The notes under the pieces: model-generated
Told to the model about the DNA's origin: nothing
Databases searched by the model: none
What the model saw: the letters and a program-made list of their open reading frames with translations, nothing else
In this document: positions 43,690 through 58,697 of the stretch, piece by piece
Layout of the letters: each line of letters starts with the position of its first letter
Numbering within the stretch: the first letter of the stretch is position 1
Made by a program: the position numbers and the translations under genes
Source: Phyllosticta citribraziliensis
Lineage: Eukaryota
NCBI RefSeq assembly: GCF_038025025.1
Contig: NW_027117339.1
Span: 2,604,001 to 2,668,000, forward strand
Direction of reading: 5' to 3'
Length of the DNA: 64,000 nt

Positions 43690-44490
43690 GAGTTGAATGC
43701 CCGAGTGCAGAGTTTGAAATCTTGGAGTATTCAATTCCTTCTCCGCATGTGTGCACGAACAGGTCCCTGACACGCGGATCTACAAGGAAAAGGGAGCATT
43801 CAAGCACTTTCCCCCAGGATTCAAGCAAGCCCCGAACCAGTGTTATAGACTGCAAGTAAGTGCGAGAAGAGGGAGCATTCACGCACCCTTCCTCAAGATG
43901 CAGACGTGCCCGCAATGCAGGTCTACAAAGGCAAGAAGAGGAAGCATACAACGCATCTCCCCATTCCGGCATGATGGTAGCAAGTGTCTGAACAAGTGCC
44001 AGAGTCCGGCCGTACGGGAAGGGGGAGCATCCGAACAGTATCCATGATGTGATGTAAACAGGTGCCCGCTATCTGGCTCTGCAAAGACAAGAAGAGGGAG
44101 CATCCAACACATCCCCCCATTCCGGCATGATGGAAGCAAGTGCCTGCACAACTGTCAGAGTCCGCCTGTGCGGGAAGGGGGAGTATTCAAGCGCCTCTCT
44201 TGAGATGCAAACAGCTGCCCACTATCCGGGTCTGCAAAAGCAAGAACAGGGAGCATTCAGGCACATCCTCAGGCACTCCGGCGTGATGGAAGCAAGCATC
44301 TCAACATCCGATCAAGTGCCAGAGTCCGACTGTGCAGGAAGGGTGAGCATTCAAGCACTTCTCTTGAGATGCAAGCAGGTGCCCAAGGCGAAGTGTGGGG
44401 AAGGGAGCATTCAGACACTGTGTGAGAACACTTTTACGGCGAGCTTTTCTGTCACGAGGGAGTGTCAAGGAGCATTCAAGTACATCACAG
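43690..44490 (+). repeat. Degenerate tandem array: 11 copies of a GGAGCATTCAAGCAC core, alternating ~70/~83-bp spacing (~155-bp dimer)
   Basis: Cores at ~43724, 43793, 43872, 43941, 44024, 44097, 44180, 44250, 44344, 44404 and 44469. The subunit CCATTCCGGCATGATGGAAGCAAG..CAGAGTCCG recurs at ~43961, 44117 and 44273. Confidence 0.88.
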
Positions 44491-44536
44491 GGGAATGAAA
44501 ATGGTCGGGAAGAAGTCAATTGGTCGGCTGTCTGAG

Positions 44537-45020
44537 TCAGTAGGGATTGACTCGAGGGCCCTGTCCGCTGCTGTGCACCACGTCCACCACCTTGGCCACC
44601 TCGGTTGATGTTCTGGACACCGCGTCCACCACGCCCTTTTCCATCATGCCGGAGTGGGGAAATGTGCTTGAATGCTCCCTCTTCAACGACTGGTGGCTGA
44701 CATAACCCTGGCAACTCCGTACCACTGAAGGATTTTGAGGGCAAATGGTCATTGTACTACTCATTCAAGGCCCTTTGAGCCCAATTCTATCCTCAGTAGA
44801 GCGCGACTCGAGCACTCTGTCCGCATTGTCCGCCAGGTCCAGGTCCTCCACCGCCGCGGCCTGGCTTGCTGCCCTACCCATCGCTTCCACAGGGAACATT
44901 CATGTCACGGCAGCTGAAGGATTGTGAGGGCAAATGATCGTATTACTCATTCAAGGCCCTCAGTACGGATTGACCCGAGCACTCTGTCCGGCGCCAGGTC
45001 CTCCAGGTCCTCCACCAGGT
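44537..45020 (-). repeat. Three tandem copies of the helicase gene's 3' end (last codons, stop and part of the 3' UTR)
   Basis: GQSARVNPY* (stop 44960), GQSARVALY* (stop 44793) and GQGPRVNPY* (stop 44537). The ~50-nt block CTGAAGGATT.TGAGGGCAAATG..ACTCATTCAAGGCCCT occurs at 44725 and 44914. Confidence 0.85.
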
Positions 45021-48000
45021 CCTTTCCCGCCTTTTCCAGGTCCACATCCACCACCAGGTCCGCCTTTGCCCTTGCCTTTGCCCTTGTTGGTCCCCTTGCC
45101 CTTGTTGGCACCCTTGCCACCTTTGCCACCCTGTCCGCCGCCGCCGCCACTTCCATCTCGCCACGGAGCAGCTGGAGTCTGATACGAACCCATACCTGTT
45201 CCTCTGGGAGCGTTGTTGAGCCCAGCCGCAGCAGCAGCAGCGTTGGAGTTGGAGCGCTGCGCATCATTGACGACGAAAGTGCTGTCTTTGATGGCGGGTT
45301 CTGTCACCTCTTGGCCTGCGAGAATGTTCAAATAGTCGGTAACATCGATAACATCCCTCTTGTAATCCAGGTCTTGAACAAGATGATGCAGAGACGAAAG
45401 GACCTTTTTAGCCACCAACGCCTTGTCTTTGCGGTGTATGCCCCTAATCCAAGGCGCAAAGTTGCCGAAGATGTAAAGGCAATGCTTCCCGCGCGAAAGA
45501 GCGACATTGAGGCTGTTCTCCTGGGCCATGAAAGCGATGTCGAATTCATTATCGAGCTTGTTCACCGTTAGCGACAACAGAACTACCTTACCTTGACTTC
45601 CTTGGATTGCTGCTACTGTCATGACCCTGATTTGGCGAGCAACATCGTTGGGGAACGCTTGGTAAAGCTTTTCGACAAGGAGGCGACGCTGGCCACTGTA
45701 TGGCGAACCCACCAAGATTTCCCGTGGGTCGACTTGCCTCAGATCGGTTTGATTCGGACGGGGTCGAACTGCCAGGAGCTTACTGATGGTAGCAATAAGG
45801 GCGTTTGCTTCCGACTCGTTGCAGAGAGACGGCGTATTCTTGTAAGTGTGGGACGAAATTTGCCGGTCCCCAGCAAGAGAGGTGGAGACGTCGATGGCGA
45901 TACGACGACGACGGTTCCAAACGCGACTGCCAGCAGATCGCATGGTCAGCTTGATCGTGCCCTCAAGTTGAATGTCGCGTTTCGCCTTGCAAATCAGGCT
46001 CCCGTTGTAGAATTCGTCCGAGATGAACGCCATCAGCTCCTCGTCCATGCGGAAGCATTCGACAAGCATGAACGCAGCAACATCCTCATCGTCTTTCTTC
46101 GCCTGCAGGACATGGAAGACACTTGGACCCAGGAGTTTAATCGCCTCGTTGTTCATCTGCGACTGCAACACCGGACGCTGCTGCTTGTGATCGCCGGCAA
46201 ACATCACGGTCTTGACACTGTGTCGAAAAGCGGCAAGAGGGATTGCAACCTCTGGAACGGTAGACTGGCCACACTCGTCGACGATGATGACTTCAGGGCG
46301 GAAATTGCCCGTCAGGATCTCATGCGCAGCTCGAGAAGTTGTCGTGAACACAACCTGGATGCCTGCCTTTCCTTTGAAGAATTCCTCGGTGAATTCCACC
46401 TCTCTGAGACCCTTCGCGGTCTTCCGAAGCTCTTTCTTCGCCTTCTTTGACACTTTCGGATCTTTCGATTGTGCGAGGCACTTGAGATATTGCAACGCCT
46501 TGTCGCAGAGTGAATGGGTCGAATCGGTCGAAATTCTTGCGATCATCGCTTCCAGCATACTGGGAAACGAGAAAGCCTCCAAATCCAAGTTTTCGGCCGT
46601 GAGCAGATTATCCCACATGCTGTTGAGCAAATCCTGTTGCTCGGAGGCATCCGAAGGAGGGGTTGCATCAGTGGCACTGGGCGCTGTCTTCCTGGTGCCG
46701 CCACCCGAGAAACGACAGAACTTGCGAGCGTCCATGCTGGTTGACGTCCTGAACTCGTCGAAGGCCTGGTCGAGAGGGGAGTTGACTGTTGCGCAGAACA
46801 GGATCCGAAGACCCGTCGCTGCCAGAGCTTCAATGGCCGCGATCTCAGTTCCCGTTTTTCCCGTTCCCGGTGGGCCCCACAGCGTGACGGTCGGGTAGTT
46901 CATCGTTGCTCTCACAGCCCTGGCTTGCTCCTCGTTCATGTTCGAGCGCTCGATGAACTCGTGCACCAGAGCCCTTCTTTCGGGCTTCTCATCAAACCAC
47001 TGCTTGAGCGCATCCTGTCCACCCTTACGTGGACCCAGGTCAAGGAGAGCCCTGATGTCAACGCCGCATTGTCCTTTTGGTCGGTTCTGGAAGAGCAGTT
47101 GAAGAGCGCTGAGCTGGCGGGACGTGGGCACCTCATCGTCAAGTGCCGAAATGATGATGGGGTATCTCTTTCCGGCTTCAAGCGCGAGCTCTGGCCCGCG
47201 GGCGAAGACGTTGAAGTGAGCTTTTGTTTCAAGGTGGTCATCAACGACAGATCCACTGAACTTGGGCCAGCGCTTGCCGTCGCCAAAATCAACCTTGAAT
47301 ACAACCCGAGTGTCAATCTGGGGTTGCAACTGGTCGGCGTTCGACTCGGGCAGCCACACCGAAACCATGTACTGCGAAGGCTCCGAAGGGCAGGGGATGA
47401 ACTCGGCCCTCGCTGCTGGTACATTGGAGAGGCTGCTGACTCGGAGGATCGTCTGCTGAGCTTCACGCTCGCGTTGGACAGACAAGCGCCACAAGAACAT
47501 TCTCTGTTCAATTGGTAGACCCTCGGGCAACTCAAATGATGCCCATGATGCCGGAATCAGGATCGGCCGCGAATTAGGCCTGCCGTGTTGCCTTCCAACC
47601 CACCATTTCTCGACGAGCCACCTTGGGACTTCCAGTTCGCGAAGAGGATACTGTTGGCTTGACATTGACCCGCGGACTTCAGGACACTGCAGGCGGTAGA
47701 ACCACATGAGACCAACATCCCTGCTGACCTTCATCAGGGGCATGAAGAAGCTGCGGAGCCGAGTGAACTCGCCCAATCCATGCTTTTGAATCAGCGTGAA
47801 TATGGACAATTCAACGTCTCCCTGGGCCAGATGTGCCACAATCTTTTCCTCGTCAGTCAGAGTATCGTGGTCTGCGTCGCAAATGGCGGTAATCCGGCTC
47901 TTTTCAAGGCCCACAAACTCGATCCGGGAGCGGCTCTTCGTCCTCTGGGGTCCGTGTTGCACATTCGTGTTTCCGGAATCGACGTCCATCGCCTCACCAA

Positions 48001-49387
48001 TCGGTGTGAATTGGGAGGCTCCGAGCGCTGGAGCAGCTTTTGGCGCATTGGAAGCTGTCCACGTGCGTGCAGCGATCTTGACGCGTGTCACGACCCACTG
48101 CCATTTGTCGGGCACATTGGCAGTGTCGGCAGGAAGGCTCTTCCAGGCAGATACGTCGTCTGCCGTAGGCTCCTTTTCGCCAGTGCGCATCGCCAACGAG
48201 CACATCTCCTGACCAACGTCTGGGTTTTCTTCGGATGGAATCTCCAGACAGGTGCCGAAGACGAGGCAAATCAAAGGCTTCGCACCTTTGCGATTGATGC
48301 TGATCTCCAGGTGCGGCCATTGCGTCTGGATCCTCCATCTCAGATTGATGATCGGGGAAGGGGCGGCGGGCGATTTGGGGAAGCAGCCAAACACCTCTCC
48401 TGATTTGAAGCGGAGGACTGCTCCGAACTTGCTGAGCATATGCTTTCCACCCGGCTGTGGGGTGAGCTCCTTGGATGACGGAGTGTCCATGCCCCTGTAT
48501 GCGGCCGTGACGCATGCCAAGTCAGTGCGGTACGATGGACACCGTTCGGCGAAGTCGAGGATTGCGGCGTTTTGCAACGTTTCGCTGTCTTGACGCTCGT
48601 ATTGGTACACTGGCTTGGGGGTGTATCCTGTTGTTCCCTCCATGGCGATGTCCCCTTCTTCGTCGACATCTTGGTCGACGTCTTCCGTTTCCGTAGTGTG
48701 AGCGTGCTCAACAGGGGCGGGCTCCTCCTCGATGTCCATGGTGTCTTCGTCGCGCTCGACAGGCCCCATCGACTCGACGCAGGCTGCACAGGAATATCGC
48801 TCCGTCGCGGGTAGAGATGCATTCTTTGGGCGCATCGAGCTTTCGGGGACGAGGTGGAAGGTTTCTCCCGGGAGATTACAGCGAGAAAGGCAAGCTGCAA
48901 CTCGAAGGTCTGGGTCGACGGGCAAATTCCAGGTTTGATCCTCAGCATCAACGCAGTAGTAGCATGTTCCCTTGTCAGAGACGCGCCTGGGAATACTGCC
49001 AACAAGGTCGCTCGAGGTGACCAACGATTTTTTCGCTGAAACCGCGTTGCCGGGCCTGGACATGTCGCAATCTCGGCAAATGACCGCGTTGGTGACAGCT
49101 TGCCAGGCTTTGCTGGGGCAATCCACACAGCTCGCGAACACAAGATCAGCCTTCAGATACTCCGGATCGCACTTCATTTCTGAAGTGACATGTCTCAATT
49201 CTGCCGCGTGCGCTCCGGCGAAGCACCAAACCTCATCGACTGAACGGTTCAGCTCACACGACAGGCAAACCCCACTGGCTTCGGCCCGTTGCTCAATGGA
49301 TTGCCGGAACCTACAGTTCGGGCATTGAAACCAGAGAGCCGGGGCCTTGGCCGGGGCCGGAGCCGCGGGGGAAATGGACGAATCCAT
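44960..49387 (-). CDS. Superfamily-1 helicase (UPF1/DNA2/NAM7-like, AAA_11/AAA_12) with a Cys-rich N-terminus and G/K/P-rich tail; intronless, 1475 aa
   Basis: MNEEQARAV (Q motif), [56 protein letters not shown]-terminal CPNC, CLSC, CVDC, CRDC, CYYC and CAAC pairs. Confidence 0.9.
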   Translation of the reverse strand: MDSSISPAAPAPAKAPALWFQCPNCRFRQSIEQRAEASGVCLSCELNRSVDEVWCFAGAHAAELRHVTSEMKCDPEYLKADLVFASCVDCPSKAWQAVTNAVICRDCDMSRPGNAVSAKKSLVTSSDLVGSIPRRVSDKGTCYYCVDAEDQTWNLPVDPDLRVAACLSRCNLPGETFHLVPESSMRPKNASLPATERYSCAACVESMGPVERDEDTMDIEEEPAPVEHAHTTETEDVDQDVDEEGDIAMEGTTGYTPKPVYQYERQDSETLQNAAILDFAERCPSYRTDLACVTAAYRGMDTPSSKELTPQPGGKHMLSKFGAVLRFKSGEVFGCFPKSPAAPSPIINLRWRIQTQWPHLEISINRKGAKPLICLVFGTCLEIPSEENPDVGQEMCSLAMRTGEKEPTADDVSAWKSLPADTANVPDKWQWVVTRVKIAARTWTASNAPKAAPALGASQFTPIGEAMDVDSGNTNVQHGPQRTKSRSRIEFVGLEKSRITAICDADHDTLTDEEKIVAHLAQGDVELSIFTLIQKHGLGEFTRLRSFFMPLMKVSRDVGLMWFYRLQCPEVRGSMSSQQYPLRELEVPRWLVEKWWVGRQHGRPNSRPILIPASWASFELPEGLPIEQRMFLWRLSVQREREAQQTILRVSSLSNVPAARAEFIPCPSEPSQYMVSVWLPESNADQLQPQIDTRVVFKVDFGDGKRWPKFSGSVVDDHLETKAHFNVFARGPELALEAGKRYPIIISALDDEVPTSRQLSALQLLFQNRPKGQCGVDIRALLDLGPRKGGQDALKQWFDEKPERRALVHEFIERSNMNEEQARAVRATMNYPTVTLWGPPGTGKTGTEIAAIEALAATGLRILFCATVNSPLDQAFDEFRTSTSMDARKFCRFSGGGTRKTAPSATDATPPSDASEQQDLLNSMWDNLLTAENLDLEAFSFPSMLEAMIARISTDSTHSLCDKALQYLKCLAQSKDPKVSKKAKKELRKTAKGLREVEFTEEFFKGKAGIQVVFTTTSRAAHEILTGNFRPEVIIVDECGQSTVPEVAIPLAAFRHSVKTVMFAGDHKQQRPVLQSQMNNEAIKLLGPSVFHVLQAKKDDEDVAAFMLVECFRMDEELMAFISDEFYNGSLICKAKRDIQLEGTIKLTMRSAGSRVWNRRRRIAIDVSTSLAGDRQISSHTYKNTPSLCNESEANALIATISKLLAVRPRPNQTDLRQVDPREILVGSPYSGQRRLLVEKLYQAFPNDVARQIRVMTVAAIQGSQGKVVLLSLTVNKLDNEFDIAFMAQENSLNVALSRGKHCLYIFGNFAPWIRGIHRKDKALVAKKVLSSLHHLVQDLDYKRDVIDVTDYLNILAGQEVTEPAIKDSTFVVNDAQRSNSNAAAAAAGLNNAPRGTGMGSYQTPAAPWRDGSGGGGGQGGKGGKGANKGKGTNKGKGKGKGGPGGGCGPGKGGKGPGGGPGGPGAGQSARVNPY

Positions 49388-49544
49388 TTGGGGTGAATGT
49401 CTTAAGGTAAAGCTCTATGAAGAGCTACCGACAGTCAAGCAAATACTAGGCGTACCTAGTATTGCCCCACTCCGTAGGAGCGGTAATCGCAACAAAAAGT
49501 TACGACTGAGGGAAGCGCTTAACGGAGCGCGAGCCGGGGGAGAG
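49366..49544 (-). ncRNA. Structured 5' leader, copy 1 (upstream of and overlapping the helicase start)
   Basis: Reverse complement of 52421-52598 at roughly 85-90% identity in the core, by eye. Five stems with compensatory or G.U-consistent differences between the copies. Confidence 0.75.
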
Positions 49545-52420
49545 GGTGTGTGCGCCGGGGCGCGTGAACGAGGGGGCGCCGGGGCGCGAGAGCGAGGGCG
49601 CGGGAGCGCGAACGAAATGGCTTGCAGCAGAGCTGCAAACCAGGAAGACGGGTGACGCGAAGGTGGCGTCAAGGGGGGGGAGGGTCGGAGGTGGTGGAGA
49701 GGAGAGGAAGAGAGAGGAGAGTTGAATTCGAAAGACTGACTGAGGGTTGTGGGCGCAAGCGGCGCCATTCCCAATCGGGACGACCACCTGCCCGGAGGCA
49801 GGTGCGGGTTCCCGTCGGCCAAACAGTCCAGCGGTACTCCTGGAAAACACCACACGAGACTGCCGTCTGCTCAGGTCAAAACAACATCCACGCTGGATAC
49901 ACCAAACACTGGCAGAGGCTGCAACTCTTTCTACCCGAAATTCCCTCCAATCGATACAGTGAGTGTACAGGTAAGAAAGCTCCATTTCCTCATCTGCTGT
50001 ACTGAATTAATGCTCCCTGGACACGGCTGTGGTGCAACGAAAGCTTCCTGGCCTCGACCGTGGGTGGCGGTGGATGGACGCTCCCAGGCCACAGCCGCGG
50101 CGCTGAATGGATTCTACATGGAAGCAGTCATGGCCAAATGGCGGCTCTCTGGCTCGAGGCGCCCATCTTCGAGATGACAGCAGAAAGGCATTCTTTGCTA
50201 CTGGTATCCGACCTTTCCTTTGCCCGAAAAGATGGCTAACGGGATCGGTCCACAGGCCCTGGTTGCCCGTCAGTATTTCGTGATTCCCGCTCGGAAACGC
50301 CCCATCACATTTCCGACCGTTCAGTTCCACCTATTTGCGCTTCATGCTCCTCTTCAGGCATTCGAGGGATATTTTGACAATGACATGAGAGGAATAGAAG
50401 GCTAGAGGCAAGCCGATGGACAAAGAAGGAAGGGAAAGCTATTTGCTGGACAAAGCGATGAAACCAGCCCGCACATATGCCTCTGATTGCCCATCGGTGG
50501 TTTGCGTGCTGGGGAGCCACCTACCACATTTCCATCTCTTCAACCCTACCTTGCACTCATGTACATCTTCATCAAGCAAGCCAGACCATCAAAGGATGGT
50601 ATGCCAAGAACCTGAGTGGCAAGTAGGGCGAGCGACGAGCCGACAATTGAACGAGGAAAGGTAAGTTGTTTGCTCCCACACACGCCTAGCATGGCTTCGG
50701 CATTACTCGCCAATCCAATTTTATCCGCTTTCTTTTTATGAGATGATTGGGCGAAAAGGTAGCTTTCATTGCGATGATGGTGCTGCTCAAACGGGAACGT
50801 TTGGGCAACTTGATGATGTCTATCTAGGCGGTGAGCGCGTATGCATTCCGCCCCGCCGATGCTTGTCTGATATTACGGTACGCTCCCTTGCTCTCTCCCG
50901 GACTTCCGTCGGATGCTGCCAAGGAACGTCTGCCCCTACATGTTGTCGATTAGTTAATCCAAACCCATCATGTCGACGTGCAAGGAATCATCTTCCCGTT
51001 GGAAAAGTGAATCGGCTGGTCCGTGCTTGCGTCTTCATCGCCTCAGCTGCAAAGAACGACTCGCAAGCAGAGCGCCTGCAGACTGTGCTCTGGCCACCAC
51101 ACCACCACCGGGTTTCCGACCACTTTGTCCATGGCGAGCACTGCGGGATACTCAGTAGCGGAGTTGGGAGGTCTGCAGATAAGCCTCGGGGTCAGTTGTC
51201 TCGTGGTCGGTCGCTGGGACCAATTGCTGCCGAATATGAATGTATCCCTCCCATCTTGTTCCAGACCACGACCCACTAATGGATGACATATAGCCGATGA
51301 ACTGACTTGAAGCCCAGCCCCCATCCAGCAAGCGCCGTCACCAGAAGCCAGGTCGAACGGGCCTCATGACTGGATGCGACTCCAAGCCTGCCATATGTAC
51401 CGAGAAGCATAGGAAAATTGTGCCGTCGTGGGTGTGTTTCTCTGGAACATGAAGGTACATTGACTTGTAGGGGATCTTCGCATTTCTACTGCGCCACTGG
51501 TAAGCCAATGAAAAAAAGCGATTGAACGACAGCAGGTCTCTGCGCGCCTGGGAACTTGTCTTGCCCAAGCGCCAGGAGAATCGCCGCGCATCTTACCAAA
51601 CGAAATGCCTGCACGCTGCCATCAGTAGAATCCAAGGCCACGCTTCGCAGAAGTCCCTTTTCATGTTTCAAACCTCATGCGCGCTCTTTGGACTCAGATT
51701 CTCAAGCCCGGGACCATGAAGAGAGTCCACTACCTTTCCACCTCACGGTATGTAGACGAAGTTTTGTCCTAAGGCCCAAGACGTGGGTGGTCGATCGTTC
51801 TGCTTCCAGTCAAATACTCGATGTCTTCCATCAGCCTCTCCGCGACCCTTCCATCGGATCCCTGGACCCTTCAACTTCGATGTGTCCTACGGTTCTTCGC
51901 GCCAAGTCTTGCCGAGATCGACACGCCAGAGCAGGCGTCTTCGCAAGAGCAAGTTGTCCGCCAGCGACAGGAATCCCAGGATTGGCAATGTCTCGAGATG
52001 CCATCGTATGACGGACGCATTTGAAATCGGAATGCGGGAGCTGTTCGATTCATGGGAGCACGCCGTCCGTGAGTTGAATTTTGGTGGAACTAGCGATTGA
52101 AATCGCGACGCAGACGGCAAGAAGTGTCGCCGTGTCTGCTGGCGAACAGTTTCCAAGGAAAGAAAGAGTCGAGCTGACAGACCGGGATGCGATTGCATGC
52201 GCCGGATCGAAAGTCGAGCCGACTTGGGAAGGCCCCCTGAGAACAGAGTCAAGAAACTCCATGGGCGCGATGCTTCTATTCTTTTCCTCTTTGCACCTCT
52301 CACTACGTTCTGGAAATCGTCAAGGCATTCGTGTCTTGCGCGAGACATCCAGAGCAGTGAAGAGGTAAATTCCATCGTTTCGTTATTTTCCGCCCTCTCG
52401 CCCTCTCGTTCTCCTTGCCG

Positions 52421-52598
52421 CTCTCCGCCCGGTTTCGCGCACCGTTAAGCGCTCTCCCCAGACGCAACCTTTGTTGCGGTTACCACTCCTACGGAGTGGG
52501 GCAATACTAGGTTCGCCTAGTATTTGCTTAACTGTCGGTGACTCTTCATAGAGTTCACCTTAAGACATCATCTCCAATGGACTCGTCCATTGCCCCCC
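52421..52598 (+). ncRNA. Structured 5' leader, copy 2 (upstream of and overlapping the GIY-YIG gene start)
   Basis: GTTAAGC..GCTTAAC encloses CGCAAC/GTTGCG, CCACTCC/GGAGTGG and AATACTAGG-TTCG-CCTAGTATT. This is followed by TGTC-GGTG-ACTCT-TCAT-AGAGT-T-CACC-TTAA-GACA, ending 10 nt before ATG 52577. Confidence 0.75.
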
Positions 52599-55015
52599 GC
52601 CGTGAGAACGGCTCTGGTAGGAAGACCTACCCTGAGCAAGCCGCAAGGCCTGCCAAGAGGGTGAGGTCGTCGTCGGCGAACAAGGAGAACGACGACGAAG
52701 ACTACCTCTACGTGGCTGACGGCGATGCCGACTACCACTTTGAACTTCGCGAGGACGTCCAGCCGAGGCGGTCCTCGAGGATCGCTGCTCAACCCCTGAC
52801 CTTGAAAAGTCCGAACCAGAGGCTTTCTCGTCCTTTCAGGGTGCCCTCGAGGTTGGCTGCTCCCGGTCCGGCGCTGTCGACTCCGTCGCGTCCTCCCACG
52901 CCGCGTCCCGCTCCCACCTGGCATTCGGCTGTTCCCACGCCGGCTCCTTCGGCTTCGTCGAATGCTCCTGCTCCGTCGGCCGACAACTTGATTCGGCAAT
53001 CAGAGGACGACGACGACGACGACGAGCCTCCCAGGAGGCCGTGGGGCAGGACGAGTGTCTTCCTCGAGATGGACGAAGACAAGGACGAGGAAGACGAGTC
53101 TCCGAGGAGGCCTTCGAGGGCGGGCCGAAAGCGTCTCATCATTGACATTGTTGGTGAGCAAGAGCAAGGCATGCCCGCAGAGGCCGGAGACCCCGTCGGG
53201 AACGATGGACTTCCCGAGGACGATGGACCTGCCGAGGACAATCGACCTGCCGAGGACAACGAGCCCGACTGGTTTGCCATGGTGGAGCAGGACCAGGAAG
53301 CTCACGGCGCTGTGGATGACGACAACGACGATGTCGAGCCTGAGGAAGACGACGACGAGAACGACAGCGACGGCGACATCGACGACGTCGACCAATCCAA
53401 CGTCGGAGATGGCGACGATGAAGAGGACAATGATGCCTTCGCACTGTCCCCTGCTGTTCGTCGCCAAAGGGCAAATTTCGTCCGCAGAATGGAGAATCTC
53501 AAGATCAACATCGGTGAGCCCGCTGAACAAGGAGTATCATACACTGACATTCTGCAGAAGAGGGCACACCTCCACTATTCACTGTCCATCGAAGCCTCAA
53601 CTCTGAAGCAAATCATCATGCGTCCTGAAAACGGCGACGGTCCAGTTGGTGCAACAAGATTTTTCATGTCATTTCTTCGGTACGTCAATGTTGACCACCT
53701 GGTTGACCATTTGGTGGGACAGCTTCCGGATGCTTCGGTCAACGTCCTCGGAGACGGAAATGGGCTTACGGCACAGAAGATCATGGACCTGCCTCGTCTG
53801 CCAAATGAGGAGATGTGCTTGACTGGGGTTTACCTCGGGCTTATCGAAGAGGACGGTCTCTACACTGGCTCCGCTCGTTCTGACTTTGGTTTCCTCTCAC
53901 GATTCTGCCAGTATGACCGAATCGCCAAGGGTGGCCTGAAAGCAGCACTGCCTTTTGAAAGAGCCATCGCAGGGCACAGCGACAACGTCAACATCCGCGC
54001 CCTGTATGCATCACCGGTGGCGTCCACTCCGGCCATATACACGCTGTGCTACGAGACTTTGATCATGATTCTCGTGGACTCTGTGATGCCCATCTCCGAG
54101 AATATCAAATTTCTGCCAAGTCTCCATGGAGAATGGTACAAAGAGGCGGTGGGCGCTATTCGTGAACTGTTTCGCCCCTCCCCATTTCAAGGCCATGGCT
54201 TGAATCGAGTTTGGTCAATAGCGCAGTCTGTGCCCAGACAGTCCATACGCTACCTTCAGAACACGACGTGCAACAACTGCCACGTGTTGTGGACGCCAGA
54301 GACAAGACACAGCTGGGTCGACGGCCAGGTCCTCTTTGCCTGGAGATGCGCCGCTTGTGAGTTCTACCTCTGGAAAAGAGGCGTTCCCCGGCCAGTGAAG
54401 TTTCAGGTCAGAAAGCAGAGACTGGCAAGAGCAAGAGCGGCAAAACTCGACGACGTGTGTCCGAGCTGTACGGGTACCTTCGATCATTGGAACCTCGTCC
54501 GTTTCCAAGAGGAAGACTTTTTGGTTTGCGACAAGTGCAAAGGATTCATCAACCAAAAGAATCGATTCATGCGGCCGGACGATCATCGTTATGGCGACTA
54601 CAAGTACCCTGACAAACCAGAGGATGGACTTTGTGTCAGCTGTCTTGTGCAGCCCTGCAGGACAATCGTCAAAATCTCTGGGATAGAGCATTGGGTGTGT
54701 GGCGCCTGTTTCAGTTTTCGTGATCGAAACCAGCGCCTGAAGGTGGCGACAGACCCCGGCCATAGGGACTACGGTCAAATTCCCGCCAGTGGTGAGTGCC
54801 CCAGTTGCTTGAAAATCTTCTCACATGACAAGGAAAGATGGAGCTCGGTGGACAAGGACGGCTTCAAAGTCAAGGTCTGTGGCAACTGTTATCAATTTAC
54901 AAGGAGTAATCAAGGGCGATTCAAGACAGCTGCCAACAGGGGCCACAGAGATTGGGTGGCCCAGTGGCCCAAGAATGATCGCTATGTTCCAGTCAGTCAA
55001 CTGCGACAGTCTTGA
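52577..55015 (+). CDS. Putative GIY-YIG endonuclease with a disordered acidic N-terminus and four C-terminal GATA-like Cys4 zinc fingers; intronless, 812 aa
   Basis: GVY-x9-YTGS, downstream Arg (FLSRF..Y), Glu (CYETLI) and GLN appear in GIY-YIG order. Fingers are CNNC-x22-CAAC..RGVPRP, CPSC-x19-CDKC, CVSC-x18-CGAC and CPSC-x23-CGNC. Confidence 0.72.
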   Translation: MDSSIAPRRENGSGRKTYPEQAARPAKRVRSSSANKENDDEDYLYVADGDADYHFELREDVQPRRSSRIAAQPLTLKSPNQRLSRPFRVPSRLAAPGPALSTPSRPPTPRPAPTWHSAVPTPAPSASSNAPAPSADNLIRQSEDDDDDDEPPRRPWGRTSVFLEMDEDKDEEDESPRRPSRAGRKRLIIDIVGEQEQGMPAEAGDPVGNDGLPEDDGPAEDNRPAEDNEPDWFAMVEQDQEAHGAVDDDNDDVEPEEDDDENDSDGDIDDVDQSNVGDGDDEEDNDAFALSPAVRRQRANFVRRMENLKINIGEPAEQGVSYTDILQKRAHLHYSLSIEASTLKQIIMRPENGDGPVGATRFFMSFLRYVNVDHLVDHLVGQLPDASVNVLGDGNGLTAQKIMDLPRLPNEEMCLTGVYLGLIEEDGLYTGSARSDFGFLSRFCQYDRIAKGGLKAALPFERAIAGHSDNVNIRALYASPVASTPAIYTLCYETLIMILVDSVMPISENIKFLPSLHGEWYKEAVGAIRELFRPSPFQGHGLNRVWSIAQSVPRQSIRYLQNTTCNNCHVLWTPETRHSWVDGQVLFAWRCAACEFYLWKRGVPRPVKFQVRKQRLARARAAKLDDVCPSCTGTFDHWNLVRFQEEDFLVCDKCKGFINQKNRFMRPDDHRYGDYKYPDKPEDGLCVSCLVQPCRTIVKISGIEHWVCGACFSFRDRNQRLKVATDPGHRDYGQIPASGECPSCLKIFSHDKERWSSVDKDGFKVKVCGNCYQFTRSNQGRFKTAANRGHRDWVAQWPKNDRYVPVSQLRQS

Positions 55016-56299
55016 AGCTCGCGATGTCCATGTAGTGCGGAAAATATGAGATTGGTTTTATTCTATATTCAGGAATGAAAATGTGATCTTCTTTGTTCCT
55101 TGACTCGTGTTGCAATATGCCCAAATGTGCGAGTTTTCAGAGACGAGACCTGATATTTGTAGTTAAAAGGGATTGGTGTGGGACACAGAGGTTTCTGAAG
55201 AGATGGACCGAATCGCTGGCGTAAGCAGCCTGTACGCTATCACTGATGTTCTTCCCCTTTGATTCCCACCTCTACCTTGTTTTACCCGCGCGAGCAAGCG
55301 ACAAGAGATACTAGGAACCCCCAGGCTTTTGCGTGGCCAAGGAAGGTATGATGGAAGAAAGCGGGATAATGGATCCTCCCGAATCACCGCCCGAGACACC
55401 ACAGACAGGTACCTCAATGTTTGCTGTCACGCTCTTGCGAAGGGGCCTCAACGATCTTTCTGCTGTTCATGTTCCTTGTCTAGACACCCATCTACTTGGT
55501 CGATCAATCGGCCGATTTCATTTGAGAAATTTCGTAGAAGTATTTGTGGCCATATTGATTACTTGAATGGAATCACTTGAAAGTTTGCTGGCCGTACTCT
55601 ACCGTACCATGCCCTGGTAACACAGCCACTGCCTTGGGGCAACGGCGATGGACGAGATGATGGACCCAGTGAACGAAGCGGGCGGATGAGGAGGAAAACG
55701 TGGGAAAGGTCGTGGCAACCTCGCATTCAAGGTGGTCAGACTCGACGAGTTCGGGGTAGCTGTCGAAAAATGATTGACCCATCCTAGCGCTTGCCGTGGA
55801 TGTACGGTCAGACTTGGAGGGGTCAGGGGGTGTCATTGAAAGAGGCAGTATAGCTGGAGCTCGTCATTCTCGGCCAGTCTTCTTGTTAGTGGAGCTTCTG
55901 ACCGATGGACCAACGCTAGATGCACCCGGCTCACGACCCCAAGCCAAATAAGTTGACTGAAGGTTTTAGTAAATCAATCAGCACATCAATCAGCACATCA
56001 AGCAGTGGACCAAGCAGCCATTGACGTGGTCATAGAAGCTGCTTTCCAGGCAGCAAACGAAGGGGTCAAGGTATAAAGAGCGGCTGCAGCGGCAATGGCA
56101 GAAGTGGAAATAAAGTAGTAGATTCCAAGCACGGTGAGCCGCGGATTGCCTCCTATTCTGAGAGATGTAGATATATTTTACTCCAGACTATAGACGTAAC
56201 ATCTTATCCTCCACCGCTTGCCTTTGGTCATGAAGTGACTTTTTTGGAGATCCTCGTCTTGGGAGTTTCGCCTCGCGGAGCCATTCCTATTTTTGAACT

Positions 56300-56840
56300 C
56301 CTCTCATGGACTTCGGTCCTACCACTTCCTTCGCGTCGTGGGGCGATTTCATCATCGCTTTATAGCCGCTGGCCTTCCAGTTAGGGTCGGCTTTGACATC
56401 ACTTTGGATTTCGGTCCCACCACTTCCTCCGGGTCGTGGGGCGATTCCCTTCGAAGTTGCTTTGTTCTTTGGCACCCCATTTCGGGGCGACCATCCTCTC
56501 TCTCTCTCGCTTCATGAACTTCGGTCCTACGAAGTAGCGGTGGCGTCGTCAACAGCGTTTCACCTACTACATTTTCTCTTCACCACTGCCTACGGGTCGT
56601 GAAGCGATCTCCCAGGTCCTGCCTAGAGATCGTCTGTAAAGCCGGTGGCTCTTCATAGAGTTTTACCTTTTACATCAATTTTTTTCATGGGCTTCGGTCC
56701 TACACTTCTTACGGGAGGAAGGCGATTTTTTAATCGCTTTGACAGTCGCTGACCCTCCAGTAGGAGTCGGCTTTCAACACAACTCTGGAGTTCGGTCCTA
56801 CCACTTCCTTCAGGTCGTGGGGCGATTTCCTCGGAGGTCA
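56300..56840 (+). repeat. Degenerate array of a ~38-bp unit TTCGGTCCTACCACTTCCT..GGTCGTGGGGCGATT, ~100-bp period
   Basis: Copies at 56312, 56410, 56520 (5' part only), 56581 (3' part), 56693 and 56791. Block 56304-56450 is duplicated at 56685-56830. Confidence 0.88.
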
Positions 56841-56972
56841 TTTTTTGGGGGCGGTGGAGGGGAATCACTTGATGGGTTCGGGTTTAGCCATCCCTTACAA
56901 AATCGGCACTTTACTCCCTTTTTCCTCTTTTTCTCTCTCTTCCCCCCTTCTACAAACCCGCACTCAAACAAA

Positions 56973-57674
56973 ATGGTCAAGAAATGGTCATTGACAAGCT
57001 ATTCGGCCTCGGCCAGCGGTGTGCTTCCTGCCGACCTGACCTGCACGCCAGCATTCCTCCGAAACATCGCCAGGAACTCACGGCCAATTCGCGGAGTCCA
57101 ACACTAGAGACGACTCGAAACGTCTACCGAGGAGAGAGATGGCGAAAGCTTCACGGGATGGATGCGGAGAACGAGAGAGGTCTCACGGAGCAGTCGCCAC
57201 GATCTTCGGGCTCTTCGAGAACGGGGGGATTCTCGGCCCAGGAGAAGGGCGGAGAGGGGGAACTTGTTGGTAAAAGAGACCCGAGGTCAGCCTGATCCCG
57301 CTCCAGCTTTGGACGCAAATGATGTTAAATCAAAAGTCTTCAGCATGGAAACCTATCCCAACCTGCCGCAGGTGTACGCGTACAAAAGCCGCGATAGCCA
57401 GACGTTGGTCGCACCCGGTCACCTCGAACTAGCGGGGTCGTCTCCATCTTACCGCTCCTCTACGACATACGCTTCACCGACATCCGAAAACAATCTGCTC
57501 GCCAAGCGGAGTGCGGTGCTCAGGCTCAGCACAAGAATGGTGTTTGGCCAGTTGGTGTTGTCCTTGAATATCAACTTGGGCTTCGAGCTCCATTCGCAGT
57601 GGGTGCATCTCGACATTCGCGTCGGCTCAGACTCTGGGTACTGGGACTCTGATGACGGATCAGAGATGGTTTGA
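56973..57674 (+). pseudogene. Possible interrupted ORF (single in-frame TAG at 57105-57107)
   Basis: CT-rich leader and CAAACAAAATGG start. The frame stays open after the TAG and is in frame with ORF 57162-57674. No recognisable domain. Confidence 0.3.
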
Positions 57675-58697
57675 TGGTAGACTGGTGTGCTGGTGGTGCA
57701 GGGTGTACGTTCTGGCTTTTCCAATGTTTCCTGGGGTCTGTGTCTTGTTTTGTCGGCGTTGGGGTTTAGACTGCTGCTGGCGCCACTTTGCGGGCGGGGC
57801 GTTCGCTCTTAGATAGCTGAGACGTCAGATCCGACGAGAGAATCGAACGCTTTCCAACGTTGACTGCTTCTTCGCGCACTACCATCACCACCTGTACGAT
57901 GAGCAACAAAAGCGCCTCCACACTGGTCCCTAGGAATGTCAGGCCAGGCCGACAGGCATTCTTCTTCCACATCCTGCCAAGGCAGAAGCGTGAATGAAAA
58001 AGTAGAGGGACCGCTTATGCAGCGGTCTTTTTGTTCCAAAAATTGCGCCCCCAGCTGTTGAAGAAAGAGGAAAGAAGAGAGGGAAGGCGGAGGTGGAAAC
58101 AGCGTGGAAGGCGAAGGGAGGGAAGCCATGAGGCCAAGGTGCCGATTTTGGTGGGAGAGCTGAACCCGAAGAGAAAATTTAGACCATTGAAATGGCCTGC
58201 CGTGGAGAAGTCAAGTGGAGAGCTGGATGGAGAGCTTTTATAGACAGCCCCCAGGCGACTTGGTTGCGCCTGCGCTAACCTTGGTCAGGCAGCTGGCCGG
58301 CTCAACCGGTTTCGACTTTGTCAAGTCTGATGGATGAGAGAGGCCAAAGGTCTAGGTAAGGTACATAGGTAGGAATTGTACCGGTAGGTCGGACCGGGAG
58401 GGGGCGCACAGATGCACGGGCCTGCGCACTACGCCCGATTAGGCAATATCTCGAACCTCAACACCACTTCGATAGTCTGTACGTCTGTGCCTGCGCGGCG
58501 TCCAAGCAAGTATACTGCGTGTAGAAGCATTGGTTTACACCCTATTGAGCTCAAAAACACTGTAATAGCTAGCTTATTGGCTGTATTCCAAAGCCAATTC
58601 GAAAATATGCATTTGCTGTCTGAACGAAGCTCCCCCTTGACCCCCTTTACATCTAAACACCAAGCCACTCTCGAGAACTTTCTCCTGGGCTTTGAAT

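Follow-up and report, generated by a model that had tools for sequence, protein, structure and literature searches.

In a 64,000-nt stretch of the Phyllosticta citribraziliensis genome (contig NW_027117339.1, positions 2,604,001 to 2,668,000; hereafter the window, whose own numbering is used throughout), two divergent genes, one for a superfamily 1 (SF1) Upf1-like helicase and one for an 812-aa putative nuclease with zinc fingers, begin inside inverted copies of the same leader of about 180 nt. The two copies, A and B, are homologous, fold stably, preserve their base pairing on one strand only and are present in contigs of spliced transcripts, a combination that would suggest selection of the leader as RNA and an effect on translation. 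The reading that we favour, tentatively and as a judgement that could nearly as well fall the other way, is that the leader is a structured 5' RNA that was block-duplicated together with its start codon and has placed both genes under one post-transcriptional control. It is unusual for two unrelated nuclear genes to be preceded by a block-duplicated leader that carries the start codon.

Leader copy A: 49367-49544, minus strand, boundaries by BLAST, ATG at 49387-49385
Leader copy B: 52421-52597, plus strand, boundaries by BLAST, ATG at 52577-52579
Helicase open reading frame (ORF): 44960-49387, minus strand, intronless, 1475 aa, SF1 Upf1-like
812-aa ORF: 52577-55015, plus strand, acidic low-complexity N-terminal half, GIY-YIG-like fold at about residues 400-560, four GATA-like fingers

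Two inverted copies of one leader

Gapped BLAST within the window aligns copy A (49544-49367 in its own sense) with copy B at 86.1% identity over 180 columns (E ~6e-46), and a repeat search places the strongest inverted arms at 49413-49496 and 52470-52553 (84 nt, 93%), with three weaker arms adjoining. A 28-nt core of the leader occurs twice in the 64-kb window and in none of 100 shuffles. Each copy comprises ~155 nt immediately 5' of the ATG together with 7 codons of the ORF that begins there, and the two ORFs diverge, each starting inside the repeat and reading outward. The similarity crosses the ATG and ends 21-24 nt inside both coding sequences, just beyond a predicted hairpin that holds the AUG. 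As the repeat spans the ATG and first codons, the helicase and the 812-aa protein both begin MDSSI(S/A)P. Protein comparison finds residues 1-7 in common and the remainder unrelated, and kinship of the two proteins past residue 7, of which none was detected, was rejected. The initial annotation of this DNA had described a common leader before two unrelated genes, and both its coordinates and its description were correct. The sequences flanking the aligned columns are unrelated.

No further full copy was found within the 64 kb, either by a search with the 28-nt core or by a covariance model (R1) trained on the two copies. A degenerate pattern for the hairpin termed P5 below had 0 matches in metagenome contigs and 0 in viral contigs. 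No publication on such a fungal helicase/GIY-YIG pair or on a common leader of this kind was found in the available parts of the literature, which does not prove absence.

Weak similarity and pyrimidine-rich tracts extend ~100 nt 5' of both copies. Directly 5' of copy A are two 24-nt GC-rich tandem units (49552-49599, 88% identical) and, at 49618-49642, an 11-bp hairpin with TTTCGTT after it. This hairpin was flagged by a scan for bacterial-type promoters and terminators, which is irrelevant to a eukaryote. The motif CCA(T)TTTCGTT precedes copy B as well as copy A.

Predicted fold of the leader

Folding of the sense strand gives copy A a minimum free energy (MFE) of -59.4 kcal/mol over 151 nt (z -6.44) and copy B -53.7 kcal/mol over 148 nt (z -5.76); in neither case did any of 200 shuffles fold as well. 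The antisense strands fold more weakly (z -3.53 for A and -4.00 for B), still better than shuffles. When the first codons are included, the whole module reaches -65.6 (A) and -60.8 (B) kcal/mol. Hairpins were defined with RNAalifold and RNAfold, and from the RNAalifold consensus of 45 pairs the 3 of a stray outer helix were dropped, leaving 42. The predicted hairpins stand independently in a row and form no junction core, and the row from P0 to P5 ends ~10 nt before the AUG. Of the six hairpins listed below, the last, with the start codon in its stem, is predicted in both copies.

P0: 4-bp GCGC hairpin with 8-nt loop; A 49515-49530, minus strand; B 52437-52452, plus strand
P2: 6-bp hairpin; A 49488-49504, minus strand; B 52463-52478, plus strand
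P3: 7-bp hairpin with UAC loop; A 49467-49483, minus strand; B 52483-52499, plus strand
P4: 12-bp hairpin with loop UACG in A and UUCG in B; A 49438-49466, minus strand; B 52500-52528, plus strand
P5: hairpin with composite 13-bp stem and UCAU loop; A 49398-49433, minus strand; B 52533-52567, plus strand
P6: AUG hairpin AAUGGA-(U/C)UCG-UCCAUU; A 49372-49389, minus strand; B 52575-52592, plus strand

The initial annotation had drawn five stems, P1 to P5. Folding of both copies recovered P2, P3, P4 and P5 as described there, and this part of the model stands. Its P1 (GUUAAGC/GCUUGAC) is disfavoured, with a pair probability of 0.00 in A and 0.026 in B and a cost of 7.5 and 2.0 kcal/mol, respectively, when enforced; it was rejected on energy and needs replacing, the local GCGC hairpin P0 and a longer P4 being preferred, while the AUG hairpin P6 needs adding. 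This sixth hairpin, a decayed third copy and an AUG-free zone before each start, both described below, go beyond what had been annotated.

A comparison with Rfam 15, which the initial annotation had proposed, gave no credible match (cmscan at E<=1, both strands of 48500-53500 and 55000-58500), and no covariance model of any Rfam 15 family, whether ribozyme, internal ribosome entry site (IRES) or other cis element, matched over the element. The lone hit of this search, to mir-598 at 53315-53392 on the minus strand (28.8 bits against a gathering threshold of 69, E 0.0055), lies away from the leader in an acidic GAC-repeat coding region and is most likely due to chance.

Preservation of pairing between the copies

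From P0 to the end of P5 the two copies were compared over 133 columns, 84 of them paired, in which they differ by 14 substitutions (11 transitions and 3 transversions) and 2 one-base indels. Five of the 14 substitutions fall in paired columns (hypergeometric p 0.027), and none of the 42 consensus pairs is broken. When the same number and kind of substitutions were placed randomly in 200,000 trials from each copy, the probability of 0 broken pairs was 0.0009 starting from B and 0.0014 starting from A. To lessen circularity, the structure was also taken from one copy and scored in the other:

Sense strand, structure from B: 0/42 pairs broken in A, p 0.0009
Sense strand, structure from A: 3/46 pairs broken in B, p 0.14
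Antisense strand, structure from B: 6/45 pairs broken in A, p 0.74
Antisense strand, structure from A: 5/39 pairs broken in B, p 0.73

The MFE structure of A adds a few extra pairs, and one of the three failures on the sense strand is an indel artefact.

The single-sided changes in the stems are U.G/C-G and G.U/A-U. In the sense orientation every stem mismatch is G.U, and A.C does not occur. The initial annotation had pointed to this asymmetry, G.U on the mRNA strand and A-C on the other, and it proved real (0/42 pairs broken on the sense strand against 5-6 on the antisense strand). This asymmetry provides the chief argument that selection acts on the sense strand, as RNA or as single-stranded DNA. 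A stable fold with sense-strand pairing kept, as expected of a structured 5' untranslated region (UTR), is thus seen in two full copies. The claim of two true compensatory changes in P5 held in part: the change from A-U to G-C is clean, and that from G-C to A-U depends on the placement of a 1-nt indel. MAFFT scores this second P5 pair as G.U/A-U, and it becomes compensatory only if the neighbouring indel is moved one base further.

A decayed third copy within a repeat array

A third, partial copy covering the P3-P5 part lies at 56582-56677 on the plus strand, with 70.5% identity to A over 88 columns (E 1.7e-5) and 70.1% to B over 97 columns (E 4.5e-5) in BLAST. The covariance model R1 matches its P5 hairpin at 56644-56669 (19.6 bits, E 1.7e-4), which is the sole match below E 0.01 within the window besides the two training copies, among 41 matches listed. 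The two variable pairs of P5 are A-U and G-C in copy A, G-C and A-U in copy B, and G.U in both positions in the third copy. These G.U pairs are the expected stepping stones between the two states, and such G.U intermediates exist on the sense strand only. The third copy is followed by an ATG inside a GGGC-UUCG-GUCC hairpin and by no long ORF. While the copies that front an ORF keep every pair, the copy that lacks one decays, which is the contrast that purifying selection predicts.

The third copy lies within a degenerate tandem array at 56290-56860 (plus strand), whose units open with (T)CATGGACTTCGGTCC, a motif similar to the AUG hairpin, after which come pieces like P3 and P4. The start of the unit corresponds to a CATGG-UUCG-hairpin motif, and no long ORF follows the array. 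A higher-order repeat is present as well (56304-56466 against 56685-56846, 77.6% over 165 columns). Conserved structure in the array at 56.3-56.9 kb was considered and rejected, as its folds are unexceptional (z -1.55 and -0.94).

Transcript contigs and upstream AUGs

Contigs from two public runs, X1 and X2, were read as transcript assemblies based on nine short GT..AG/CT..AC skips in flanking housekeeping genes, adapter-like loose ends and uneven depth. One X1 contig (44946-50259; 5314 nt, 0 differences, 0 gaps) spans the helicase ORF and copy A and runs on for another 714 nt. A second (51318-53679) contains 1103 nt 5' of copy B, copy B itself and the first 1103 nt of the 812-aa ORF. Just upstream of each contig-covered leader is a splice joint of matching polarity:

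Intron: 50259-50524, minus strand, junction contig 50257>50524 (CT..AC), GT..AG in the sense of the helicase gene
Intron: 51242-51317, plus strand, junction contig 51241>51318 (GT..AG), in the sense of the 812-aa gene

At least some transcripts carry the leader plus much more upstream sequence. The initial annotation had named transcription starting downstream of the element as an outcome that would speak against it, and given the spliced contigs this does not apply to at least some transcripts. The element thus lies in transcribed sequence upstream of and over the start codon, as read from runs guessed to be RNA and contigs without starts. Stretches without contig cover (e.g. 55216-55849) carry no weight on expression either way. 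Three further joints (45086>53005, 45242>53005 and 53025>58074) were rejected as assembly chimeras, their 21-nt sides lying in GAC/Gly-codon low-complexity repeats.

The start codon is preceded by 381 nt (A) and 307 nt (B) without any AUG (rough Poisson p 0.002 and 0.001), and the contig-supported regions further upstream contain 8 AUGs on the helicase side and 21 on the nuclease side. The AUG-free zone fits a major transcription start a few hundred bases upstream combined with ordinary scanning into a highly stable leader, or alternatively an internal landing site.

Possible function of the leader and alternative explanations

If the leader is a structured 5' RNA, a module of ~180 nt would have been duplicated in inverted orientation and become the proximal 5' leader, start codon and first 7 codons of two divergent, otherwise unrelated orphan genes. 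It would act as RNA through five stable hairpins and the small hairpin sequestering the AUG, and the folded leader would block or gate scanning by the 40S subunit and access to the start codon. Hairpins this stable stop the scanning 40S subunit, and fungi are sensitive to such structures. With -54 to -66 kcal/mol and its end at the AUG, the leader should strongly impede scanning, giving a default state with mRNA present and little protein made that is relieved by a common factor. Production of both proteins would depend on a single trans-acting factor or condition by which the leader is opened or recognised; candidates for such a factor would be an RNA-binding protein or an RNA helicase, possibly the one encoded here. 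In this way the translation of a potentially harmful helicase-nuclease pair would stay co-regulated. Structured leaders through which several genes answer to a single translational switch are well known from viruses and from a few cellular regulons. If the fold gates translation, the locus would be a compact example of a eukaryote coupling two potentially dangerous enzymes post-transcriptionally, and it would show a control module spreading by local duplication. A rather unlikely but more far-reaching version is that the leader is a portable translation-gating RNA of cellular origin with its own AUG, either IRES-like or an 'RNA operator' opened by the helicase encoded downstream, whose duplication ensured that the fast-evolving helicase-nuclease pair, which may be a selfish or genome-defence module of fungi, is translated solely in concert and solely on a specific signal; the decayed copies would then be failed or retired recruitments.

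Several points weigh against a role of the leader as a structured 5' RNA. The RNA status of the two runs is guessed and not on record, and their contigs give neither transcript starts, strand nor amounts, depth being a single figure per contig. The comparison of pairing rests on two full copies, one decayed partial copy and 14 changes, and the consensus structure was derived from the same sequences on which it was tested; with the structure taken from A, as listed above, preservation on the sense strand does not stand out from random placement. Even in the absence of selection, templated mutation or gene conversion can produce compensatory changes in a DNA palindrome. Taken by itself, P6, which holds the AUG, folds no better than shuffles (z -0.30 and -1.10), the outer helix of P5 and most of P4 are gone from the third copy, and the array units keep the UUCG hairpin only, with no compensatory pairs.

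An unlikely alternative is a module acting at the level of DNA, in which a core promoter and palindromic factor sites co-regulate transcription of the two genes and the RNA fold is a by-product. CT tracts occur near the start sites of filamentous-fungal genes, and the pyrimidine-rich tracts and weak similarity that continue ~100 nt upstream of both copies would suit such a promoter, as would the AUG-free 307-381 nt, which fit a start site close upstream, and the antisense strands, which also beat shuffles (z -3.5 and -4.0). What a promoter does not account for is that pairing is kept on the sense strand only, with 0/42 pairs broken there against 5-6 on the antisense strand, that the stem mismatches are all G.U in the sense orientation with none A.C, and that the repeat reaches past the start codon into coding sequence, for which a promoter has no reason. 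In addition, the contigs span the whole element and the five palindromes all differ; the five stems of differing sequence (6-13 pairs with 3-5-nt loops, the long P4 and the composite P5 being counted in full, plus the 4-bp P0) look like RNA hairpins and not like repeated protein half-sites. The leader could also be a neutral by-product, a junk local repeat like the array at 56.3-56.9 kb whose similarity is kept by gene conversion and which has no function. In favour of a locus prone to such repeats, both the decayed third copy and an array of degenerate, related units lie 4 kb away, other local duplications are seen at 43.8-44.5 kb and at the 3' end of the helicase gene, and the array units have no conserved structure beyond one UUCG hairpin. 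This explanation appears quite unlikely, as the copies fronting ORFs are 86% alike with every pair kept while the ORF-less copy is at 70% with helices lost, and gene conversion erases differences but would not sort them into loops and G.U-compatible sites.

Among the explanations that do invoke RNA, an IRES-like element is improbable. In this case the genes would have AUG-laden 5' UTRs of 0.9 to >1.2 kb, and the module would recruit the ribosome internally and position the AUG, as domains II-IV of hepatitis C virus (HCV) do. The RNA indeed extends 0.7-1.1 kb upstream of the copies, with 8 and 21 upstream AUGs, and the AUG lies in a small hairpin with the first codons inside the element, as in HCV domain IV according to the available part of PMC3273827. 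The contigs, however, cannot show that the long form is a translated mRNA, the AUG-free zone equally fits a nearer start with ordinary scanning, and no Rfam IRES family matches. At ~155 nt before the AUG the element would also be short for a factor-independent IRES. It is very improbable that the copies are terminal inverted repeats (TIRs) of a DNA transposon or miniature inverted-repeat transposable element (MITE) spanning 49367-52597, or the flanks of an invertible segment. A 180-bp inverted repeat does flank a 2.9-kb segment, but both long ORFs have their starts within the repeats, point outward and are in the same frame with respect to the repeat, no target-site duplication (TSD) is visible at the outer ends 49366/52598, none of the 7 ORFs of the spacer has a Pfam domain, no transposase was found, and within 64 kb these are the only full copies; the contigs run from spacer through repeat to ORF in the reference orientation. 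A self-cleaving ribozyme or other catalytic RNA, which the initial annotation had suggested, would be most surprising. The element does have several helices and UNCG loops packed into ~170 nt of RNA, but the Rfam 15 search described above gave no credible match, no junction core is predicted, P1, which would close a junction, is disfavoured, and the contigs pass through the element uncut. The suggestion of a replication signal or the end of a viral segment found no support either, the copies being internal to a nuclear locus between housekeeping genes.

Comparison with known systems

Iron-responsive elements are structured 5'-UTR hairpins common to functionally linked mRNAs, through which one factor controls several of them. 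The leader is like them in placing a conserved hairpin structure before different mRNAs, here with pairing conserved on the sense strand. It differs in comprising ~155 nt with five hairpins plus the start codon and 7 codons, block-copied in inverted orientation next door, and in belonging to no Rfam family.

In HCV-type IRESs the domain IV stem-loop holds the AUG (available part of PMC3273827). The leader resembles them in being a multi-domain RNA that immediately precedes the start and in enclosing the AUG in a small stem-loop that extends into the coding sequence. Unlike the HCV element it belongs to a cellular nuclear locus, has about half the size, contains no predicted pseudoknot or junction and shows no sequence or Rfam match. 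In HCV, the stability of that stem reportedly controls initiation, a result attributed to Honda et al. in 1996.

A further comparison is with maize MuDR, in which mudrA and mudrB, two unrelated genes, both start in ~215-bp terminal inverted repeats; the genes are convergently transcribed, with promoters and start sites within the TIRs (PMC3440606, available part). In both cases two unrelated genes have a common leader because each begins within one of two inverted arms. The MuDR genes are enclosed by the repeats and converge, whereas the present genes lie outside the repeats and diverge, and the MuDR-like arrangement of genes reading inward is absent, both ORFs reading outward. Here the repeat also includes the ATG and 7 codons with neither TSD nor transposase, while the repeats of MuDR are transposon ends. 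The features expected of a TIR transposon or MITE were absent from the locus (no TSD at 49366/52598, 0/7 spacer ORFs with a Pfam match, no further full copies in 64 kb). The leader would be classed as a structured cis-regulatory leader, unusual in its block duplication with the AUG before two unrelated neighbours.

The pair of proteins also recalls the Mokosh system, in that the helicase core matches MkoA models and is paired with a predicted nuclease. Unlike Mokosh (MkoA plus a PLD nuclease), it is eukaryotic, and the partner has a GIY-YIG-like fold with GATA-type fingers; a Mokosh-type combination of an MkoA-like helicase with a PLD-family nuclease was not found, the partner having no PADLOC match. 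The MkoA match is at the level of a general Upf1-like core. The orphan pair of a helicase and a GIY-YIG/GATA-finger protein, situated between housekeeping genes, is a candidate defence or selfish module in fungi.

The helicase gene

The helicase core occupies approximately residues 807-1340 (Pfam AAA_11 4.7e-24 and AAA_12 1.1e-27) and matches the PADLOC MkoA models (6.7e-45 and 1.2e-37) and Nam7/Upf1 in the PDB (2.4e-15). Its best relative shares 26% identity, and none exceeds 27% across a substantial part of the region. The N-terminal ~800 aa has CxxC pairs and the C-terminal tail is Gly/Lys-rich; for residues 1-800 there was no match among 8000 candidates.

The 812-aa gene for a putative GIY-YIG/zinc-finger protein

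The 812-aa protein has no Pfam match, and a word-indexed search returned the protein itself alone. An exhaustive HMMER search of 1.84 billion representatives found 16 proteins at E<=1e-3 including itself, its relatives being hypothetical proteins of Pleosporales fungi, one tick record and metagenome sequences. In an alignment of 14 sequences Tyr, Tyr, Gly, Arg, Arg and Glu, plus a Leu, are invariant, among them Y100, Y110, R123, R155 and E174, which would correspond to catalytic residues of I-TevI. Neither the protein nor its 15 relatives match Pfam GIY-YIG. An AlphaFold model of the segment has a mean predicted local distance difference test (pLDDT) score of 64.9 and is good over the first ~190 residues. 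The top 3 Foldseek matches to it are the I-TevI catalytic domain, with a probability of 0.99 and a target template-modelling (TM) score of 0.63-0.68 at an E value of just 0.036-0.082, none being <=0.001. Based on this predicted fold, the label 'nuclease' is reasonable but not secure. C-terminal to the GIY-YIG-fold domain are four zinc fingers of the form CxxC...CxxC that are GATA-like, and the family profile matches GATA fingers in the PDB (E 1e-5).

PADLOC gave no match for the 812-aa protein. A search for the gene context of its relatives (query P0012) matched 141 stretches, of which 0 were confirmed, and a query of viral contigs with the protein matched 2 stretches, again with 0 confirmed.

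Inside the 812-aa ORF, junction contigs in both runs indicate a further GT..AG intron of 100 nt at 53680-53779 (plus strand). Splicing at this site shifts the frame, and the protein would end after 381 aa, before the GIY-YIG domain. Full-length protein would thus need intron retention, or else the nuclease part would need separate initiation. An in-frame ATG at 53783, in a ATCATGGAC context like that of the leader AUG, opens the nuclease/zinc-finger part.

Setting of the locus

Spacer between the copies: 49545-52420, no strand, 2.9 kb, at least partly covered by contigs on each side

The seven ORFs of the spacer (82-178 aa) have no Pfam match at E<=0.1. To the left the locus is flanked by genes for a TCP-1 chaperonin and an AAA ATPase, and to the right by that for a succinate dehydrogenase (SDH) flavoprotein. 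Between the AAA ATPase and the SDH flavoprotein, the helicase, the nuclease and the repeat array form an orphan block of ~13.5 kb (44900-58450), at whose ends the repeat search of the window showed no terminal repeats.

Tandem repeats of ~156 nt occur downstream of the AAA-ATPase gene at 43790-44490, and inverted matches to them at 44640-44684. At 44535-44990 there are two to three occurrences, spaced by 164-256 nt, of the final ~50 nt of the helicase gene with the adjoining downstream flank (families D9, D15 and D17), and this recurring 3' end is another sign of frequent small local duplications at the locus.

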